From a virus: DNA of 31,567 bases. The notes beneath the pieces are model-generated. The model was not told the origin of the DNA and did not search any database. It saw nothing but the letters and a program-made list of their open reading frames with translations. The first letter of the stretch is position 1. Each line of letters starts with the position of its first letter. The stretch lies in the UHGV virus genome UHGV-1390503; one strand, written 5' to 3'. Below, in pieces: positions 97-26,166 of the stretch. The position numbers were made by a program, and so were the translations under genes.

Positions 97-297
97 TCAC
101 ACTTTCGGAGGCTTAGGTAACGGCATCCAGTGGGTCACGTACTTACCGTAGTGATTCCAGAACGGCTTTCTCTCGTCGCCAGGGACAATGTAATAGTCGT
201 GCTGAACTGCGTTATTCAACGTTTCATACACCAGGAACTCCTTATCTGTACACCCATTACCGGGCAGCATTTCACTACACTTAATCCACTTACTCAT
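97..297 (-). CDS. DUF551-like phage protein (paralog 1)
   Basis: 66 aa ORF with ATG start; N-terminus MSKWIKCSE and C-terminus HWMPLPKPP are characteristic of the DUF551 family as recalled; paralogous to 315..512. Confidence 0.7.
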   Translation of the reverse strand: MSKWIKCSEMLPGNGCTDKEFLVYETLNNAVQHDYYIVPGDERKPFWNHYGKYVTHWMPLPKPPKV

Positions 298-314
298 AAA
301 TCACCTCACATTCA

Positions 315-512
315 TCACACTTCCGGCGGCTCTGGTAACGGCATCCAGTGAGTTATATCTTCCCGGTCTACCGTAACCTCCCACGGCTCTATCCAACTAT
401 CCCAATACCCATCACAGTCTAACCACATAACTTCTACGTAGACCCCATCAGTAACCAGCACATCTTCAAAATCACCCGGCATCCGCTCACTACACTTAAT
501 CCACTTACTCAT
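315..512 (-). CDS. DUF551-like phage protein (paralog 2)
   Basis: 65 aa ORF sharing MSKWIKCSE...HWMPLPEPPEV ends with 97..297; the shared 17-nt string GGTAACGGCATCCAGTG sits at 114-130 and 336-352. Confidence 0.7.
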   Translation of the reverse strand: MSKWIKCSERMPGDFEDVLVTDGVYVEVMWLDCDGYWDSWIEPWEVTVDREDITHWMPLPEPPEV

Positions 513-515
513 ATT

Positions 516-659
516 TCACCCCCTACCCATCACAGTTTGCACACCAGCTTTCCACGCCCGCCACGCGAGACGCGTCTTAACGTTCAGGTACTCTTTCTTT
601 GAACCCTTGTTAACCGGCAGACCCTCGACGACGGCCCACCGTTCAAATGCTTCTCTCAT
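516..659 (-). CDS. Small hypothetical protein (47 aa), below the ORF-track size cut-off
   Basis: ATG at 659-657, stop TGA at 518-516 placed 3 nt before the ATG of 315..512; fills the gap between neighbouring genes. No homology recognised. Confidence 0.35.
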   Translation of the reverse strand: MREAFERWAVVEGLPVNKGSKKEYLNVKTRLAWRAWKAGVQTVMGRG

Positions 660-692
660 ACCAACCCCCGCGCCGCATAAACGGTTAAAATA

Positions 693-899
693 TTACTTAA
701 CACGGCAACCTCCCTCAGAGTCGTCGGCACGAGCATCATGATTCGATGCCGTTCGGAGCGCACGTAAAACTTTTAGCAGGTCTTCACATGTCCCGGAAGA
801 AATAGTCGGGCCGTCTAATAAAACAACCTCGTATCTGTTTACCTGGAAATGCACTTTCTCCAGTCTATGATGTTTCAGTTCTTCAAATAATTCTTCCAT
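693..899 (-). CDS. Hypothetical protein
   Basis: The track ORF 693..902 begins at GTG; the in-frame ATG at 899-897 overlaps the stop of the upstream gene (minus strand GTGATG). Confidence 0.5.
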   Translation of the reverse strand: MEELFEELKHHRLEKVHFQVNRYEVVLLDGPTISSGTCEDLLKVLRALRTASNHDARADDSEGGCRVK

Positions 900-1090
900 C
901 ACTTCGCCCCTTTGAATTTAAAATTGTTGCCGATGAGTTCTAAATTCTCTTCCGCTACGTATACCACCGAATTTACTCCTCTCACCTTTTGCACAGTAAC
1001 TACGTACTCTCCCGGAAATAAAGCGGATTTTAATTCAATCACACCGTGTTTACCGTCGGCACATTTCACCAACTGACCCTTCTTAAACAT
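899..1090 (-). CDS. Hypothetical protein (first gene of the leftward operon)
   Basis: The track ORF starts at GTG 1099; the in-frame ATG at 1090-1088 is preceded by GGAGTGAGGG (Shine-Dalgarno-like) on the minus strand. Confidence 0.5.
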   Translation of the reverse strand: MFKKGQLVKCADGKHGVIELKSALFPGEYVVTVQKVRGVNSVVYVAEENLELIGNNFKFKGAK

Positions 1091-1111
1091 AACCCTCACT
1101 CCTATGTCTCG

Positions 1112-1157
1112 TTTCGATGAGTGAATAGTATCCTATTATGTTGGGGTGTGCAAGAGA
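1112..1157. promoter_or_regulatory. Promoter/operator element copy 1 (palindrome AATAG-N4-CTATT); candidate leftward promoter TTGCAC-N17-TACTAT
   Basis: TGAATAGTATCCTATTAT at 1122-1139; on the minus strand TTGCAC (1153-1148), a 17-nt spacer, TACTAT (1130-1125), about 25 nt upstream of the RBS of 899..1090. Orientation is ambiguous. Confidence 0.5.
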
Positions 1158-2137: not shown

Positions 2138-2196
2138 AAGAAAGCCCCGACGCGGTGAACGCCGAGGCCAAATTACTTGCTGAAGGAATATACAAC

Positions 2197-4437
2197 ATGT
2201 CCGATGTAATTTTATCCTACTCGTGGTCCCGTCGCAACGCGCGGGCAGAGAAAAAGGATATAAACGTCAGAACCACTCACACGGCAACACTGGACGACCT
2301 GAAAGAGCTACTCCAGCCGCTTGATGCTGTCCGTGACGGAATTAACCCGAAGACCGCGTCTGGCTATATCACTGCCGCGTGTGACTCTACGCACAGCACC
2401 GTAAAAGACCCTGAAACAGGTGACTTTAAGCAAGCGCGTAAAGGCTTTTTCTATCGCTGCGACGCGTCTGTAAGCAAATCGTCGCTGGCGTATCTGGACT
2501 TCGACAGCGCAACACCGGAAGAGTACCAGGAAGCGGTGCGCCGGGTTAAGCGCAGCCGCCGGGCCATGTGCCTCTATACCACGGCATCGCATACCGAGGA
2601 GTCACCGCGCTTTCGCGTCGTTATGCCTCTTGGACGCCCGGTTGAAGGCGGCGACATCATCCGCGTTCGCCATGGATTACTTGAGCACTTCTTCAAAGGC
2701 ATGGGTGCTGACCGCAGCGGGTTCACTCTGTCGCAACCGATGTACCTTCCGCCTGTTGGCGCTACCGTTATCTGGTCGCGTCGCAACGACCTGATTGAAC
2801 CGGACGAGTTACTGGAAGACATCCCCGCCGTTGACGTCAGCAGCGCATCGGATTACCAGATACCGGAAGAACTGCGCACCGCGTTTACGGATGCGTTCGA
2901 GGCACTGGCGTTTGAGTACGGCGGTGTCATGACGCCACGTGGCCTTAAGATGCCAGCTACGCCGGAACACGCAGAGAACTACAGCGACCCGACGCCGCGT
3001 TCGGACGACTTCCTGCTGTGCTTCCCGCGTGAAGGGTACGAAGCACCTAACGTAACCATGATTCACGACACCGACATTACGGCAACCGAAGGCATGTCAC
3101 CGAAAGAGGTGTGGAAGTACGCGTGCGATGCGACCGGGCTGCCGTTCAGTGAAGTCGCTGAGGCAATCGGCTGGGGTGCGCGTGAATTCGTTTCATGCAG
3201 CCTTGATGACCTGGAAGACGACGAGGACTCAGAGGAGGACGAGTTACCGGAACCGGTAAAGGCTGATTTTGTCGTCGAAGGGTACATGCCGTCAGATTGT
3301 ATCTGGGATATAGTCGGGGAATCTGGCACGTACAAATCGTTCTATACGCTGGGGATGATGTACCTTAGCGCCGCCGGATACCGGTTTGCAGGCGCGGACA
3401 CCCAGCGTTGCCACCATTTCTATATAGATGGTGAGGGGGGCGCAGCTACGCGCACACGTATTGATGCCCTCGCGGCTAAATATGGCGAGGAAGGTAAAGA
3501 TTATGTGCATGTCATCGACATGGGCGAAGTAGGAAAACTGAAAAGTCTGATTAAGCTAATGCGCGAAACCGCGGGGGATGAGCCTATCGGCATGGTCGCG
3601 TTCGACACCCTCAACCAGACGCTGGCCCTGACTATCGATAAGTTCGACGAGAACAGTTCATCAACGGCAATCGGCATGGGCAAAGTTATCGCCATCCTGA
3701 AAGAAGTGCGCGATGCAACTAAAGCCGCGGTAGGCGTTGTCCACCATACGCCGAAAGGTGGAAAGAAAGCCCGCGGCAGTGGGGCGCTGTATGCAGGTGT
3801 CGACGTGGAACTGACAATCGAACGCGCAACAGACCGTCGGATAAATGTATACCACTCTAAATTTAAGCACGGGCCTCAACAGAAAACTGTTGGCATGGTG
3901 CTGGAGTCGGTACAGTTTCGTGAAGCGCCGCCGCCGAAAGAGTACCGCGCGGTTGAGTTCCTGGGCAGCACAGAGGAATACGGCACAATCGTAGACCTTG
4001 ACCTGCCAGAACCACATAAGGCACTTGTGTTAATGCCGTGGGGTTTCGAGCCGTTTAAGACCGACGAGGAGAAAGAGCGGGAAGAAGGGCTGACAAAGGA
4101 AGGTAAAGAAAACGTAAAGAATACTGTAAAACGTGGAAAGGATGAAGGGCGTAAGGAATCAATACTCGCCGCACTGGAAGACCTGCAACAGTCAGACGAC
4201 ACAGGACGAGGTTTTACACAACGGCAGATAGTGGCGAATTCGGGCGACCACGCCATCACCAACCATCATCTCGAGAAGATGCTGAAAGACGGTGAGTTGA
4301 TGCTCGGATGCGATGTTAACGGTGAAGTTATACCTGGCACATACCGGATACCGGAAAAGATGGGTGACAGATTAAGACCAAAGACAATATACGAACCGAA
4401 TGAAATGCTGACAGTGACAGAGGAGGATTTGGAATGA
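2197..4437 (+). CDS. Replicative primase/helicase-type protein with RecA/DnaB-like P-loop ATPase domain
   Basis: The track ORF starts at GTG 2155; ATG 2197 has GAAGGAA upstream. Walker A-like GESGTYKS, Walker B-like VAFD, HHTPKGG motif and a long N-terminal domain of the size expected for a primase; ends TEEDLE. Confidence 0.8.
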   Translation: MSDVILSYSWSRRNARAEKKDINVRTTHTATLDDLKELLQPLDAVRDGINPKTASGYITAACDSTHSTVKDPETGDFKQARKGFFYRCDASVSKSSLAYLDFDSATPEEYQEAVRRVKRSRRAMCLYTTASHTEESPRFRVVMPLGRPVEGGDIIRVRHGLLEHFFKGMGADRSGFTLSQPMYLPPVGATVIWSRRNDLIEPDELLEDIPAVDVSSASDYQIPEELRTAFTDAFEALAFEYGGVMTPRGLKMPATPEHAENYSDPTPRSDDFLLCFPREGYEAPNVTMIHDTDITATEGMSPKEVWKYACDATGLPFSEVAEAIGWGAREFVSCSLDDLEDDEDSEEDELPEPVKADFVVEGYMPSDCIWDIVGESGTYKSFYTLGMMYLSAAGYRFAGADTQRCHHFYIDGEGGAATRTRIDALAAKYGEEGKDYVHVIDMGEVGKLKSLIKLMRETAGDEPIGMVAFDTLNQTLALTIDKFDENSSSTAIGMGKVIAILKEVRDATKAAVGVVHHTPKGGKKARGSGALYAGVDVELTIERATDRRINVYHSKFKHGPQQKTVGMVLESVQFREAPPPKEYRAVEFLGSTEEYGTIVDLDLPEPHKALVLMPWGFEPFKTDEEKEREEGLTKEGKENVKNTVKRGKDEGRKESILAALEDLQQSDDTGRGFTQRQIVANSGDHAITNHHLEKMLKDGELMLGCDVNGEVIPGTYRIPEKMGDRLRPKTIYEPNEMLTVTEEDLE
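4414..4437 (+). repeat. 24-nt repeat GTGACAGAGGAGGATTTRGAATGA (copy 1)
   Basis: Matches 7839-7862 with one mismatch; encodes a C-terminal VTEEDLE, a GAGGAGGA Shine-Dalgarno and the ATGA stop/start overlap. Confidence 0.8.
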
Positions 4438-4631
4438 GCGGTAAATTTAAAGAAGTAAGCGACGAACTGAAAGGTAATAAATACACCAACCACAGAGGTG
4501 AAATAGTAGAAGTTCTTAACGTAGTTCCTTATGGGCGTGGGTATCATGTTGTGTTTAGCTACACAGAGGCTTACAGCGTGTACTGCGGGCTAGGTAAGTT
4601 TCGCAAAAGATACCCGATAAAGGTGCAATAA
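4434..4631 (+). CDS. Hypothetical protein
   Basis: 65 aa ORF with ATG in an ATGA overlap with the primase/helicase stop. Confidence 0.55.
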   Translation: MSGKFKEVSDELKGNKYTNHRGEIVEVLNVVPYGRGYHVVFSYTEAYSVYCGLGKFRKRYPIKVQ

Positions 4632-4636
4632 AAAGA

Positions 4637-4655
4637 AAGGGGCGTTAAGCCCCTT
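4637..4655. terminator. Bidirectional terminator hairpin between convergent genes
   Basis: AAGGGGC-GTTAA-GCCCCTT; on the minus strand it is followed by TCTTTTTATT. The stop of the minus-strand regulator lies in the loop. Confidence 0.55.
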
Positions 4656-4860
4656 CACCGAACGCCAGCCACTTGGCGTCTACTTGCAGCACTTCCGCCA
4701 GTTTAAACAGCGTCGCCGGGCGGACGTCCTGAGTTACCCCGAGTGCAAGCTGGTTGATTGCGCCCTGGGAAACGCCGGCCAGGACAGCCAGACGGCGCTG
4801 GGAGATACCGAGTTCTTTACGGCGTTGTTCTACACGGATGCCTAGTTCTGATGGTTGCAT
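4645..4860 (-). CDS. XRE-family (Cro/CI-type) helix-turn-helix transcriptional regulator
   Basis: 71 aa; the LGISQRRLAVLAGVSQGAINQLALG segment is a canonical XRE HTH; oriented against the flanking rightward genes. Confidence 0.8.
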   Translation of the reverse strand: MQPSELGIRVEQRRKELGISQRRLAVLAGVSQGAINQLALGVTQDVRPATLFKLAEVLQVDAKWLAFGEGA

Positions 4861-4880
4861 GTCAATTACTCCTTAGTCAG

Positions 4881-4910
4881 TTGATATGTGAATAGTACCA
4901 TATTAATTAT
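4881..4910 (+). promoter_or_regulatory. Promoter/operator element copy 2
   Basis: TTGATA-tg-TGAATAGTACCATATTAAT; sigma70-like, with the palindrome only half conserved. Confidence 0.45.
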
Positions 4911-4924
4911 TTTAGAAAAGCCCA

Positions 4925-4954
4925 TTGACAACGTGAATAGTTCACTATTATAGT
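4925..4954 (+). promoter_or_regulatory. Promoter/operator element copy 3 (TTGACA-N18-TATAGT with embedded AATAGT-tc-ACTATT)
   Basis: Consensus -35 TTGACA at 4925-4930, TATAGT at 4949-4954, perfect 6-bp inverted repeat in the spacer; about 30 nt upstream of the RBS of 4986..5495. Confidence 0.6.
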
Positions 4955-4985
4955 TAGCTCATACCAAACGAGAGGAGAGAAACAA

Positions 4986-5495
4986 ATGTTAGAGAAATTC
5001 TTGGTATTACTGGAACGTTTCGTAGTTGCGCATGAACTGATTGCCGCGAATAGTGTGAAACGCCCTGTGCCGCCGACTGAGCGTGCGGGTGAAATGCTTG
5101 TAGACGCGTCGGTTACGGGAGAGGTACTTGAAGTCGACCCAGGTACTGGCGTCGGGAAAGAAATACCGGTTGAAGGTGAAGACATCGTCGACACTAAACC
5201 GGCAGAAGAAGAGAAGCCAAAACGCAAGCCGCGTAAAGCTAAAGTAGAGGAACCGACGCCAGAACCGGAAGAAGAGAAGGAAGAAGTTGATTATAAGTCT
5301 CTGCGCGACCAGATTCAGGCTATCGACGATGCAATTAACGAAGGTCCGAGCGATGCTGCGTGCGATGATTCCGATGAACTGCTGGGAGAGTTCACCGGTA
5401 AGAAGATGAAGATTGCCGCGATTAAAGATGAAGACCTGGCCGAGTATCTGGAACGCCTTACGGCAATCAAGAACAAGTATTTCGAAGAAGAATAA
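4986..5495 (+). CDS. Highly acidic early protein (169 aa), function unknown
   Basis: Strong RBS GAGAGGAGAGA; the C-terminal two thirds are rich in E/D (EEEKPKRKPRKAKVEEPTPEPEEEKEE...DDSDELL); followed by a terminator. Confidence 0.6.
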   Translation: MLEKFLVLLERFVVAHELIAANSVKRPVPPTERAGEMLVDASVTGEVLEVDPGTGVGKEIPVEGEDIVDTKPAEEEKPKRKPRKAKVEEPTPEPEEEKEEVDYKSLRDQIQAIDDAINEGPSDAACDDSDELLGEFTGKKMKIAAIKDEDLAEYLERLTAIKNKYFEEE

Positions 5496-5502
5496 CTATC
5501 AC

Positions 5503-5524
5503 GCGGCCTTCGGGCCGCTTTAAC
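5503..5524 (+). terminator. Rho-independent terminator
   Basis: GCGGCC-TTCG-GGCCGC followed by TTTAACT. Confidence 0.55.
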
Positions 5525-5538
5525 TGAGGGTCGGAATT

Positions 5539-5874
5539 ATGAACTACGAAAATTTAACAGACATAGAAATTAATGCACGTGTCAGCCGCGCACTATACGG
5601 AGATGTTTCGCGAGGGCATCAGATGGAATTAGCTTCTGGAGCAGTTGATTATTGTAATCGAATAGAGGACGCATGGCCTGTTATCCACGGTAACAATATC
5701 TCGATTGTAGCTACAGATTTAGAATGGATCGCTTTACCGGATAATGCGGTTATTGACGGTATTACCGGAGACGCCACCAGTATGATTTATGTAGACGACT
5801 CATGTGTTATTGGTGCAAATCCCCTACGCGCAGCAATGATTGTCTTCCTTGAAATGCAGGAGGTAAAGAAATGA
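5539..5874 (+). CDS. Hypothetical phage protein (possibly DUF2591-like, from weak memory)
   Basis: 111 aa ORF with ATG and GAGGG RBS. Confidence 0.5.
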   Translation: MNYENLTDIEINARVSRALYGDVSRGHQMELASGAVDYCNRIEDAWPVIHGNNISIVATDLEWIALPDNAVIDGITGDATSMIYVDDSCVIGANPLRAAMIVFLEMQEVKK

Positions 5875-8036: not shown

Positions 8037-8065
8037 TTGACACCTGAATAGTTGGCTATTATAGT
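8037..8065 (+). promoter_or_regulatory. Promoter/operator element copy 4 (TTGACA-N17-TATAGT with AATAG-ttgg-CTATT)
   Basis: Consensus -35 and -10 with 17-nt spacing, about 55 nt upstream of the SSB-like gene. Confidence 0.65.
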
Positions 8066-11801: not shown

Positions 11802-12112
11802 CTAAAGAGGGCCGTGTACAGAAATACACAAAAGAGCGATTCGAGGCCCTGGGGGGCCTCGTTCGTAAACTTTCCTACGAAGGACGTTCTGGTGCTCCTG
11901 ACCTGCTGGTAATTCTCCCTGGCGGCATCATCTGGTTTGTCGAGGTTAAGAAAGACGAGAACACGAAGCCAGACCCCCACCAGTTACGAGAGCATGCGCG
12001 TATGCGTAAACGTGGTGCAAATGTTTTTGTCGTCGGGTCGATAAAACAGGTTGACACCCTAATAGCAGACTATTATAGTAAGCACATACCCCAACAATAT
12101 AAGGAATTATAA
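11798..12112 (+). CDS. VRR-NUC domain nuclease
   Basis: 104 aa; PDLLVIL...GIIWFVEVKKDENTKP...HQLREHARMRKRGANVFVV matches the VRR-NUC core as recalled. Confidence 0.75.
   Translation: MTKEGRVQKYTKERFEALGGLVRKLSYEGRSGAPDLLVILPGGIIWFVEVKKDENTKPDPHQLREHARMRKRGANVFVVGSIKQVDTLIADYYSKHIPQQYKEL
12051..12079 (+). promoter_or_regulatory. Promoter/operator element copy 6 (TTGACA-N17-TATAGT with AATAG-caga-CTATT), inside the 3' end of the VRR-NUC gene
   Basis: Read directly; about 35 nt upstream of the ATG at 12114. Confidence 0.55.
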
Positions 12113-24330: not shown

Positions 24331-24365
24331 CTTGCGCACCCCAATATAATAGGGTACTATTCGCC
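24331..24365. promoter_or_regulatory. Promoter/operator element copy 5, inverted relative to copy 1
   Basis: Revcomp GAATAGTACCCTATTATATTGGGGTGCGCAAG matches copy 1 at 31 of 34 positions; read rightward TTGCGC-N17-TACTAT (24332-24360) would drive the island; read leftward it would drive the tail genes. Confidence 0.55.
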
Positions 24366-24388: not shown

Positions 24389-24715
24389 ATGCGTAAATTA
24401 GTGTTAGCTCTTGGTTTTATGTCTTTTGCTACTTTTGGGTCTCCGTGTGAACAGGTGTTTAGTGAATCCGTTCTTATGACTTCTGGTGTGCTTGATAAAG
24501 CCGACCCTACTATTGTAAAGGCATTTAAAGACTCTACCGTTCGCGAGTGTGAGGCCGCTGTAGAGGTTGGTAAATCTGGTCTGCCTCCGCAAGCGGTGAC
24601 TTACACCGTGGTGCGTTCCGTAGAGAAAGACGGAGACGCGTTCTACAGCCTGCTAACAGCTACCCGTCTGCAAATGGTGATGACTGGATGGGCGATAGGC
24701 GCGGAAAGTAAATAG
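24389..24715 (+). CDS. Secreted/periplasmic small protein with N-terminal signal peptide
   Basis: 108 aa; MRKLVLALGFMSFATFG followed by a mature part with two Cys; RBS GAGGAA; opposite strand to the surrounding structural genes. Confidence 0.6.
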   Translation: MRKLVLALGFMSFATFGSPCEQVFSESVLMTSGVLDKADPTIVKAFKDSTVRECEAAVEVGKSGLPPQAVTYTVVRSVEKDGDAFYSLLTATRLQMVMTGWAIGAESK

Positions 24716-24780
24716 TTGCCTTTATTTAAAGGAACGCACTGTGGTTAAATAGGACAAATCCTAAACACGAGGAAGTAAGC

Positions 24781-25911
24781 ATGGCCAGGAAGAAAATAAC
24801 CGACGAGCAGTTACAGGAAGAATTGAACGCCGGGATGAAGAATATCGACATTGCCCGTAAATACGGCATCTCAGACCGCGTTATTCGTATACGTAAAGCG
24901 AAACTAGCGAAGAAAGGAGTTGGTCACGGGCGGGACGTCAGCCACCTTGTGCCAGATGGCTACAAGATTAAAGGGACGTCGTCTCTGGTGGACGAGTTCG
25001 GCAACACTAAGTTGCAATGGGTTAAGACTGACACCGATGTCGAACGTCAGGTTGAATTGATGAAAGCCGTAATCGAAGGCATGAAGTCAGAGATTACGCC
25101 CGTCGCACCTGTTAAAGCAGCACGCGCCAAACGCGACGACAAGTTACTCAATCTTTACACGGTATCTGATTTCCATCTCGGTATGCTGGCCTGGGCCGAC
25201 GAGAGCGGCGACGACTGGGATATGAAGATTGCTGAAGACTTGTTCTCCCGTTGGTTCGATGCAGCGTTTCAGAAAGCGCCGGATTCAGGAACTGGGGTTA
25301 TTAACCTGCTGGGTGACCTCGCGCACTTCGACAGTCTGGTTGCTGTTACACCGGCAAGCGGTAATGTTCTTGACGCCGATACCCGCTACCAGAAACTGGT
25401 ACGCTACATGATTCGTATGGTACGTCGTGTTGTCGATATGGCCCTTGTTAAGCATAAAAATGTTCGCTTGCTTATCGTACAAGGGAATCATGACGAAAGC
25501 GGAATGATTTGGTTAGCTGAGATGTTCAGCACGCTATACGACAATGAGCCTCGTGTGTTCGTCGATACTTCGCCAGATGTTTACAAGATGGTGCAACACG
25601 GCAAAACGACGCTGTTCTTCCATCATGGGCATAAAGCGCGCTTCGACGCTATCGAACCAGTTATGATTGCCAAGTTCCGCAAAGCATTCGGCGAGAGCGT
25701 TTATAGCTACGCCCACGTAGGCCACCTGCACCACCAAAAGATTGTAGAAAGCCGTAACATGATTGTTGAGCAACACCGCACCTTAGCGGCCAAAGACGCC
25801 TACGCATCCAGAGGCGGTTGGATGTCGGGCCGTAGTGCAAATGTAATTACTTATAGCGCCGAATACGGCGAGGTCGCACGTTTAACTATTTCACCGGAGA
25901 TGCTGGGATGA
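24781..25911 (+). CDS. Calcineurin-like metallophosphoesterase with N-terminal HTH-like basic domain
   Basis: 376 aa; DFHLG, GDLAHFD, GNHDE, HHGH and GHLHH occur in the order of the metallophosphoesterase signature; the first 50 aa resemble a helix-turn-helix. Confidence 0.7.
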   Translation: MARKKITDEQLQEELNAGMKNIDIARKYGISDRVIRIRKAKLAKKGVGHGRDVSHLVPDGYKIKGTSSLVDEFGNTKLQWVKTDTDVERQVELMKAVIEGMKSEITPVAPVKAARAKRDDKLLNLYTVSDFHLGMLAWADESGDDWDMKIAEDLFSRWFDAAFQKAPDSGTGVINLLGDLAHFDSLVAVTPASGNVLDADTRYQKLVRYMIRMVRRVVDMALVKHKNVRLLIVQGNHDESGMIWLAEMFSTLYDNEPRVFVDTSPDVYKMVQHGKTTLFFHHGHKARFDAIEPVMIAKFRKAFGESVYSYAHVGHLHHQKIVESRNMIVEQHRTLAAKDAYASRGGWMSGRSANVITYSAEYGEVARLTISPEMLG

Positions 25912-26138
25912 CTTCAAAATACAACCGCACAATGACAAATACTCACGGCAGCACAATGACAGTAGACGTTTATGATGTGCTACGCGCCTTCGACATCCGC
26001 GACCCTGCACTACAGCACGCATTGAAGAAGCTGCTGTGTATGGGTCTTCGTGGGCACAAGGACACCGGAACCGACTTAGCGGAAGCAATTGAAAGTCTGG
26101 AGAAGTTACGGGAGTATAGAAGCAATATTGATGAGTGA
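25908..26138 (+). CDS. Small phage protein (possibly DUF3310-like, from weak memory)
   Basis: 76 aa; ATGA-coupled; the LQHALKKLLCMGLRGHKDTGTDLAEAIESL segment. Confidence 0.45.
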   Translation: MTSKYNRTMTNTHGSTMTVDVYDVLRAFDIRDPALQHALKKLLCMGLRGHKDTGTDLAEAIESLEKLREYRSNIDE

Positions 26139-26142
26139 GAAA

Positions 26143-26166
26143 AAGGCCCCTTCCGGGGCCTTAGTT
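26143..26166. terminator. Bidirectional rho-independent terminator
   Basis: AAGGCCCC-TTCC-GGGGCCTT with TTTTT on the minus strand; near-identical to the terminator at 15207-15226. Confidence 0.7.

Follow-up and report, generated by a model that had tools for sequence, protein, structure and literature searches.

The Cro protein of phage 434 is a 71-residue protein that is partnered by CI in a bistable PRM/PR switch, and its operators, with the half-site ACAA(G), are arranged in two triple clusters. The 434 structures place the first glutamine of its recognition helix against the outermost A and the second one against positions 2-3. The C1 protein of phage P1 and gp71 of mycobacteriophage L5, the sites of which are called stoperators, are each a single small repressor with many copies of its site distributed genome-wide at promoters. 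Both of these phages are temperate, and the repressor maintains the prophage. The controller (C) proteins of restriction-modification systems, such as C.AhdI and C.BclI, are small XRE dimers with palindromes over their own promoter, which control timing after DNA entry; they first switch on and later shut down a single operon by way of two neighbouring boxes.

Among the Escherichia coli and Salmonella phages put forward for therapeutic and biocontrol use, those of the subfamily Guernseyvirinae (genera Kagunavirus and Jerseyvirus) are some of the commonest. Their small genomes are attractive for engineering, and their transcription programme is essentially undescribed. Published isolates of the Kagunavirus group have been described as strictly lytic (PMC12919940). 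RNA sequencing of Kagunavirus K1B4 identified a gene with a helix-turn-helix (HTH) domain, K1B4_008, among only four early genes (PMC12645636); this gene is a candidate counterpart of the regulator analysed here. The searched literature contains no functional study of a repressor or Cro protein of Kagunavirus or Jerseyvirus, including binding or expression work on the XRE protein; nor does it describe the operator, the fact that every strong promoter contains one, the two promoter registers, or the divergent autoregulatory layout.

The window analysed here is a 31,567-nucleotide stretch of the virus genome UHGV-1390503, and it belongs to a siphophage of the genus Kagunavirus. A megablast search with positions 4300-5600 matched 447 phage records, the top ones being Escherichia phages of this genus, with Escherichia phage 26 being 93.8% identical. 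According to the complete annotations, the gene order is common to the window, phage 26 (42.5 kb), and Salmonella phage Jersey (43.4 kb). The larger open reading frames recognised in Pfam scans encode a helicase-primase, PD-(D/E)XK exonuclease, single-stranded DNA-binding protein, and family A DNA polymerase; further ones encode a Dcm methylase, SNF2 helicase, tailspike, tail tube, and tail terminator. The organization of the regulatory locus and of the sites dispersed through the genome points, on balance, to the 71-residue XRE protein being an orphan, autoregulated Cro-type HTH repressor of a virulent Kagunavirus, with a dispersed regulon.

The regulator gene and its protein

The XRE gene is transcribed from the minus strand, and the genes on both of its sides lie on the plus strand: those of the helicase-primase (2155-4437) and a 65-residue protein (4434-4631) on one side and that of a 169-residue acidic protein (4986-5495) on the other. 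This bears out the initial annotation, which described a 71-residue XRE-type HTH gene opposite in strand to its neighbours and an acidic product of the gene that the promoters face. The XRE protein matches the Pfam family HTH_3 (PF01381) over residues 11-65 with an E-value of 1.2e-12 and a score of 48.1 bits, the cut-off being 23, and GenBank records already label the gene as "transcriptional repressor" or "Cro". The top relative of known structure identified by sequence is the Cro of phage 434 (71 residues, E-value 4.9e-7, residues 6-68 aligned), followed by the DNA-binding domains of the 434 and P22 repressors. An AF2 model with a pLDDT of 79 has the five-helix fold, with helices formed by residues 5-17, 21-28, 32-39, 48-57, and 62-66. 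The top Foldseek matches to the model are the N-terminal domain of the 434 repressor, that of SinR, and 434 Cro, with TM scores of 0.7-0.8; controller proteins of restriction-modification systems are also among the best fold matches. The protein corresponds end-to-end to 434 Cro and has no C-terminal dimerisation or peptidase domain.

The closest homologue from outside the Guernseyvirinae in the phage collection is a protein of Klebsiella phage RCIP0098 that is 45% identical and annotated as Cro. It is encoded in a classical CI-Cro-CII region, the intergenic DNA of which contains 434-type 14-bp operators ACAA-N6-TTGT. Between the RCIP0098 Cro and the XRE protein, a common fold and length thus go together with a common 14-bp geometry, but the half-sites differ. 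The recognition helix has the sequence KQQ(S/T)IQ in the 434-type proteins and SQGAINQ in the protein from the window, so that the first glutamine is kept. The positions contacted by the glutamines are presumably those at which the 434-type operators and the operators with AATAG half-sites described below differ. All relatives with the same operator show no variation in the HTH helices. A 123-residue XRE protein with 40% identity, encoded on a high-GC contig (L038), was rejected as an orthologue, because it is unrelated. In Salmonella phage vB_SenTO17, which represents a third lineage of Guernseyvirinae (L060 19800-22826), a 39% identical XRE homologue heads the helicase-primase operon on the same strand, just as cro is placed in lambda. 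The isolated XRE gene on the opposite strand in Kagunavirus and Jerseyvirus may therefore be the result of an inversion of the helicase block.

The gene ends in a terminator hairpin, the DNA of which reads GAAGGGGC-TTAAC-GCCCCTTT on the minus strand and is followed by CTTTTTATTG. The TAA stop codon (4645-4647) sits in the loop and the T-run comes after the stem, so a hairpin enclosing the stop codon, as originally proposed, is indeed present. The hairpin and T-run are kept in approximately 40 relatives, even where the C-terminus of the protein is three residues longer. Phage Jersey has a hairpin with a different stem, GGGGGCC-TGA-GGGCCCC, and with its own TGA stop codon in the loop; therefore, it is the design that is conserved and not merely the sequence. 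The folding-energy z-score of the 51-nucleotide terminator stretch is an unremarkable -0.85, and the assignment is based on conservation and on the pattern of a stem followed by a U-run. The U-run is present on the minus strand only (hairpin region 4626-4656). Because it serves only the minus-strand transcript, the plus-strand transcription of the helicase-primase operon may read through, antisense to the XRE gene, into the region of the operator O1 and the promoter P2 described below.

A repeated palindrome and the promoters that contain it

The consensus scanner reproduced exactly the two elements reported upstream of the XRE gene at 4881-4910 and 4925-4954, referred to here as copy 1 and copy 2. 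The copies share an 18-nucleotide direct repeat (4888-4905 and 4933-4950) that is 83% identical. Each repeat is built around a 14-bp palindrome, AATAG-N4-CTATT, as its functional core, and this palindrome is a putative operator. The intergenic region is almost invariant in an alignment of 42 sequences from 37 IMG/VR contigs, phage 26, and four metagenomic relatives, although the first downstream gene differs. The ten arm positions of the palindrome in copy 2 (O2) do not vary among the 42 sequences. By contrast, its centre occurs in seven forms (TTCG, TTAG, TTGG, TTCA, TTTG, CTCG, and CTAG), and the stretch from the -35 element to the palindrome varies in both sequence and length. Fixed arms with a free centre are the usual signature of a site bound by a dimeric helix-turn-helix protein. 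The longer perfect palindrome GTGAA-TAG-TTCAC of copy 2 in the window was rejected as the operator, since most relatives have TTCGC or TTAGC, and ATGAA, in its place. A CRP-like or ARG-box reading of TGTGAAT was rejected because of the spacing and because phage Jersey is without the motif.

When up to one mismatch is allowed, the palindrome occurs six times in the window, at 1124, 4891, 4936, 8047, 12061, and 24348, against an expectation of 0.84, and none of 100 shuffled sequences contained six. All six are located within promoter-like sequences; five are intergenic and the sixth is in the last 50 nucleotides of an open reading frame, 40 nucleotides ahead of the next gene. In phage 26, O1 and eight perfect sites are found, each at the head of a gene block. 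Relatives with XRE proteins that are 77-80% identical keep each of the orthologous sites with changed centres, and Jersey has four perfect sites and imperfect ones at the XRE locus, with the AATAG/CTATT core kept. As a finding from sequence only, these are putative 14-bp, two-fold symmetric operators over early promoters, as in 434. The operator, which the initial annotation treated as local, thus appears to be part of a genome-wide regulon.

The promoters are of two classes (Table 1). In class A, TTGACA is followed by 4-5 nucleotides and the palindrome (4936, 8047, and 12061), the last T of which begins TATAGT. The window of 31.5 kb has only three sigma-70 matches of 11/12, and all three include the palindrome in this same register, while weaker matches occur overall in the number expected by chance (17 found versus 16.8 expected in the 9/12 class). 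The promoter P2 heads the plus-strand block from the gene of the acidic protein through that of the exonuclease, and the counterpart of the promoter at 8037-8065 has already been annotated in phage Jersey. The slot directly after P2 is mosaic (window 4986 onward; L002-L037, L053-L057): at least seven unrelated N-termini, MLEKF.., MTNNRKAK.., MNIITGA.., MAKRKDYD.., MKFRVD.., MQLI.., and MRT.., occur there, and some relatives have an extra gene encoding 67-85 residues inserted at this position.

In class B, TTGC(A/G)C-N17-TACTAT has the palindrome covering the -10 element (1124 on the minus strand; 24348). The promoter at 1125-1153 heads the leftward genes 1099..97 and has orthologous sites in phage 26, L053-L055, and Jersey, and the one at 24332-24360 heads the plus-strand island 24389-26138 within the tail gene region. 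Class B promoters agree only weakly with the consensus (7/12), and the scanner did not pick them up; they are recognised as promoters from position and conservation. The centre of the palindrome always ends with TA in class B, because TACTAT requires TA, whereas it is free in class A. This difference supports the assignment of the -10 element and also the view that the palindrome is independent of recognition by the polymerase. That the palindrome occupies two registers relative to the -10 element likewise argues that it is more than a component of the sequence recognised by the polymerase.

Two further features were observed next to these promoters. In relatives, the promoter of the block of small genes (annotated as DUF2737, NinH, and antiterminator) and terminase has a one-mismatch operator over its -35 element; these late-region sites lie outside the window (L001 13713-13726; L053 17794-17807; L039, which is Jersey, 42338-42351). 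The mismatch is in opposite arms, ACTAGTTGACTATT in Kagunavirus versus AATAGTTGACTAGT in Jersey, which suggests that the operator on the late-region promoter is weak by design. A 420-bp gene-free stretch (1140-1561), which could hold an origin or a small RNA, separates the leftward class B promoter from the helicase-primase operon. It contains a strong minus-strand terminator at 1236-1256, and there is no Rfam match in it or elsewhere in the window.

Table 1 Features of the regulatory locus and promoters with the palindrome in the window.
Feature	Coordinates	Strand	Remarks
Terminator hairpin of XRE gene	4636..4656	-	GAAGGGGC-UUAAC-GCCCCUUU, then U-run
XRE / 434-Cro-like regulator	4645..4860	-	71 aa, pI 9.7, single HTH_3 domain, without C-terminal domain
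Shine-Dalgarno AAGGAG of XRE gene	4869..4874	-	8 nt ahead of ATG; read from sequence
Copy 1 as plus-strand promoter, TTGATA-18-AATTAT, 9/12	4881..4910	+	weak, doubtful
Operator O1 (putative), AATAGTACCATATT; AATATGGTACTATT on minus strand	4891..4904		one conserved mismatch, in one arm
Class A promoter P2, TTGACA-18-TATAGT, 11/12	4925..4954	+	spacer 17 nt in most relatives
Operator O2 (putative), AATAGTTCACTATT, perfect palindrome	4936..4949		between -35 and -10 of P2
5'UTR and ribosome-binding site (CCAAACGAGAGGAGAG) of P2 transcript	4955..4985	+	invariant even with differing first gene
First P2 gene, 169-aa acidic protein, pI 4.5, PHROG 3127	4986..5495	+	
Class A promoter, TTGACA-17-TATAGT, operator 8047-8060	8037..8065	+	ahead of single-stranded DNA-binding protein and DNA polymerase genes
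Class A promoter, TTGACA-17-TATAGT, operator 12061-12074	12051..12079	+	ahead of methylase and SNF2 helicase block
Class B promoter, TTGCAC-17-TACTAT, operator 1124-1137 (AATAGGATACTATT on minus strand) over -10	1125..1153	-	
Class B promoter, TTGCGC-17-TACTAT, operator 24348-24361	24332..24360	+	

The palindrome of copy 1 (O1) has the sequence AATAG-TACC-ATATT in the same 14-bp frame, and its arms are invariant in the 42 sequences. On the minus strand, O1 overlaps an extended -10 element TGnTACTAT (4900-4892), and it is the conserved mismatch in the arm that places TGn before TACTAT. The TG is kept in all 42 sequences, with n being G, C, or A. The minus strand of copy 1 reads AATATGGTACTATTCACATATCAAC, with the AAGGAG of the XRE gene 21 nucleotides later, and it aligns with the class B promoter at 1124 (AATAGGATACTATTCACTCATCGAA), including the downstream tract CAC..TATC..A. 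Phage Jersey has TTGCGT-17-TACTAT directed toward the XRE gene at the same position. The minus-strand match to class B makes copy 1 a better candidate for the XRE gene's own leftward promoter than for an additional rightward one. The region would then consist of two back-to-back promoters, Pxre leading leftward with the weak O1 and P2 leading rightward with the perfect O2; the centres of O1 and O2 are approximately 43-45 bp apart.

The initial annotation had instead placed both copies in tandem, facing the gene of the acidic protein, in which case the XRE gene would be read from elsewhere, for example from the minus-strand candidate TTCACG-17-TAAAAT at 4937-4909. The scanner lists this candidate and the plus-strand copy 1, each as a 9/12 match; however, matches of this quality are found at chance frequency. 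The minus-strand candidate may still be the promoter of the XRE gene, though this is less likely. Furthermore, copy 1 has TAATTA in the class A register where TATAGT would be expected, its plus-strand -35 element varies in six of the 42 relatives, and the minus-strand extended -10 element and the leftward Jersey promoter also speak against the tandem layout. The rightward assignment therefore holds for copy 2, with its 11/12 match, and not for copy 1, and the tandem layout is unlikely. Copy 1 is probably the divergent promoter of the regulator, a role that the initial annotation did not consider.

Predicted role of the regulator and competing explanations

The two sites at the locus flank the upstream region of the XRE gene, which is an autoregulatory layout. 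We infer that the XRE protein, and no other, binds the 14-bp palindrome, that it does so as a dimer, and that the binding represses transcription and sets its timing. Upon DNA entry, host RNA polymerase would fire all class A and class B promoters, and the XRE protein would be produced from its own class-B-like extended -10 promoter overlapping O1. The accumulating protein would fill the perfect operators first, damping the transcription of replication and accessory genes. The weaker O1 would be filled last, so that the level of the XRE protein would be held steady by negative autoregulation. Because the palindrome is located inside every strong promoter, the protein probably throttles phage transcription as a whole. 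Strong early repression of all promoters would stop the expression of replication genes; therefore, the model needs graded or delayed occupancy. A Cro-like timing regulator of a virulent phage was one of two roles originally suggested for the XRE protein, and it is supported by the match to 434 Cro, the five-helix fold, the 45% identity to the RCIP0098 Cro, and the operators over promoters.

The other suggested role, that of the remnant of a lysogeny switch, is not supported by the analysis. Pfam scans of the 28 open reading frames of the window identified no integrase, recombinase, or partition protein, in agreement with the initial statement that no integrase was in view. Neither an integrase nor a partition gene is annotated in the complete genomes of phage 26 and Jersey, and CI and S24 peptidase are absent from the window, phage 26, and Jersey. 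A prophage copy of the region is not present in any of 5,426 complete E. coli genomes, and a close homologue of the XRE protein is not encoded in any of 185,579 species-representative genomes. Thirteen matches among genome contigs were rejected as prophages, because they are generic XRE proteins from unrelated metagenome-assembled genomes, with 38-59% identity over partial lengths. The close homologues in a collection of 5.8 billion proteins are all encoded on contigs of at most 45 kb, which is the size of a phage genome. A decaying remnant is unlikely, since the XRE protein is 93-100% identical across Kagunavirus genomes while the neighbouring genes are mosaic. Our best reading is that there is no lysogeny switch, that the phage is strictly lytic, and that the regulator is an orphan.

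The sole match to the region in the 5,426 E. coli genomes is a CRISPR spacer of 33 nucleotides in strain 2017.09.02CC, which is 100% identical to positions 4897-4929 of the window (L058 1501-1533) and belongs to a type I-E array adjoining iap and cas2e. Its target is the conserved DNA that separates O1 from the -35 element of P2. The spacer is direct evidence of past encounters between hosts and phages of the Kagunavirus type.

It is quite unlikely that the XRE protein is instead an immunity or silencing repressor that keeps an infecting or superinfecting genome silent, so that Kagunaviruses and Jerseyviruses would carry a complete genome-silencing circuit made up of one repressor and an operator in essentially every promoter. 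If this were true, it might let the phage genome stay silent for a time without integration, in a carrier or pseudolysogenic state, or provide family-wide superinfection immunity, including homoimmunity among Kagunaviruses, and the circuit would be more than a mere throttle of the lytic cycle in phages that are treated as strictly lytic and used for therapy and biocontrol. The dispersal of operators over all recognised promoters, including the one-mismatch -35 site of the late block in relatives, fits such a circuit and resembles the distributed operators of temperate phages. Moreover, the operator and the HTH are identical across all Kagunavirus genomes examined, and Jersey has a gene annotated as an anti-repressor. 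However, a 71-residue protein composed only of an HTH domain has no oligomerisation or RecA-cleavable domain, and the window, phage 26, and Jersey provide no integrase or partition gene. Prophage or plasmid-like copies are lacking in the E. coli and species-representative genomes searched, the close homologues are confined to phage-sized contigs, and the isolates are described as strictly lytic (PMC12919940). The Jersey gene annotated as an anti-repressor, gp22 (L039 14352-14963), occupies a junction that contains no gene in either the window (26139-26166) or phage 26.

It would be comparably surprising if another factor, either the phage HTH_17 protein encoded at 1737-1907 or a host regulator, bound the palindrome, and the XRE protein governed only its own gene or host genes. 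The HTH_17 protein is a second small HTH protein conserved in the same genomes. The recognition helix of the XRE protein changes between genera of Guernseyvirinae (the Jersey protein is 51% identical and has SQSLITH in place of SQGAINQ), yet the operator core is unchanged, so that there is no clean co-variation of protein and site within the subfamily. In vB_SenTO17, perfect AATAG-N4-CTATT sites are absent, and a de novo search of this genome found no recurring 5-N-5 palindrome; hence, it provided no test of co-variation. Against another binder, the two sites nearest to any regulator gene are those flanking the upstream region of the XRE gene, and the 14-bp two-arm geometry is that of dimers of 434-type HTH_3 proteins. 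To our knowledge, HTH_17 proteins of 56 residues, which have an Xis/MerR-like fold, contain no dimerisation module, and we know of no E. coli regulator with the consensus AATAG-N4-CTATT. Finally, it is highly improbable that the palindrome is not an operator but promoter sequence inherited through duplicated cassettes or an element read by the polymerase. In favour of this view, the three class A promoters share TTGACA, TATAGT, and part of the 5'UTR beyond the palindrome. Against it are the two registers relative to the -10 element, the arms that are invariant in 42 genomes while the spacer and flanks drift, and the fact that polymerase recognition needs no symmetry.

Significance and comparison with described regulators

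The preferred reading, a single Cro-type protein with one operator per promoter, provides a simple and testable timing model for gene expression in Guernseyvirinae. It predicts that a cell expressing the XRE protein would be blocked for, or immunised against, the whole phage genus, which is relevant to safety. Under this reading, the operator-bearing promoters would also offer phage engineering a compact toolkit of strong promoters that can be repressed. The locus also indicates that a cro gene can persist and widen its regulon after a lambdoid-type switch has been lost, or where one was never present.

The XRE protein resembles 434 Cro, and the Cro of RCIP0098, in its length of 71 residues, single domain, five-helix HTH_3 fold, 40-45% sequence identity, and the first glutamine of the recognition helix. 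As in 434, the putative operators are 14 bp long, have conserved outer arms and a variable centre, and lie over sigma-70 promoters, with the regulator encoded beside its own sites. Unlike 434, Kagunavirus has no CI partner, PRM/PR bistable switch, cII, or integrase. Its half-site is AATAG, and single sites are dispersed over at least 6-9 promoters instead of forming two triple clusters. The gene stands alone, with its own terminator, on the strand opposite to its neighbours, and no divergent CI shares the operators; the divergent neighbour encodes the acidic protein or is a mosaic gene. The Kagunavirus regulator is thus like 434 Cro in fold, size, and operator geometry but not in the immunity-region context.

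The use of one small protein with many copies of its site at promoters throughout the genome is shared with P1 C1 and L5 gp71; however, those repressors maintain prophages, and Kagunavirus has no prophage form in the genomes searched. The C proteins, which are among the top fold matches, share with the XRE protein the small size and the palindromes over the promoter of the regulator. They differ from it in activating and then repressing a single operon, whereas in Kagunavirus many transcription units have a site placed inside or across their core promoter elements, which suggests that the XRE protein acts by repression only.
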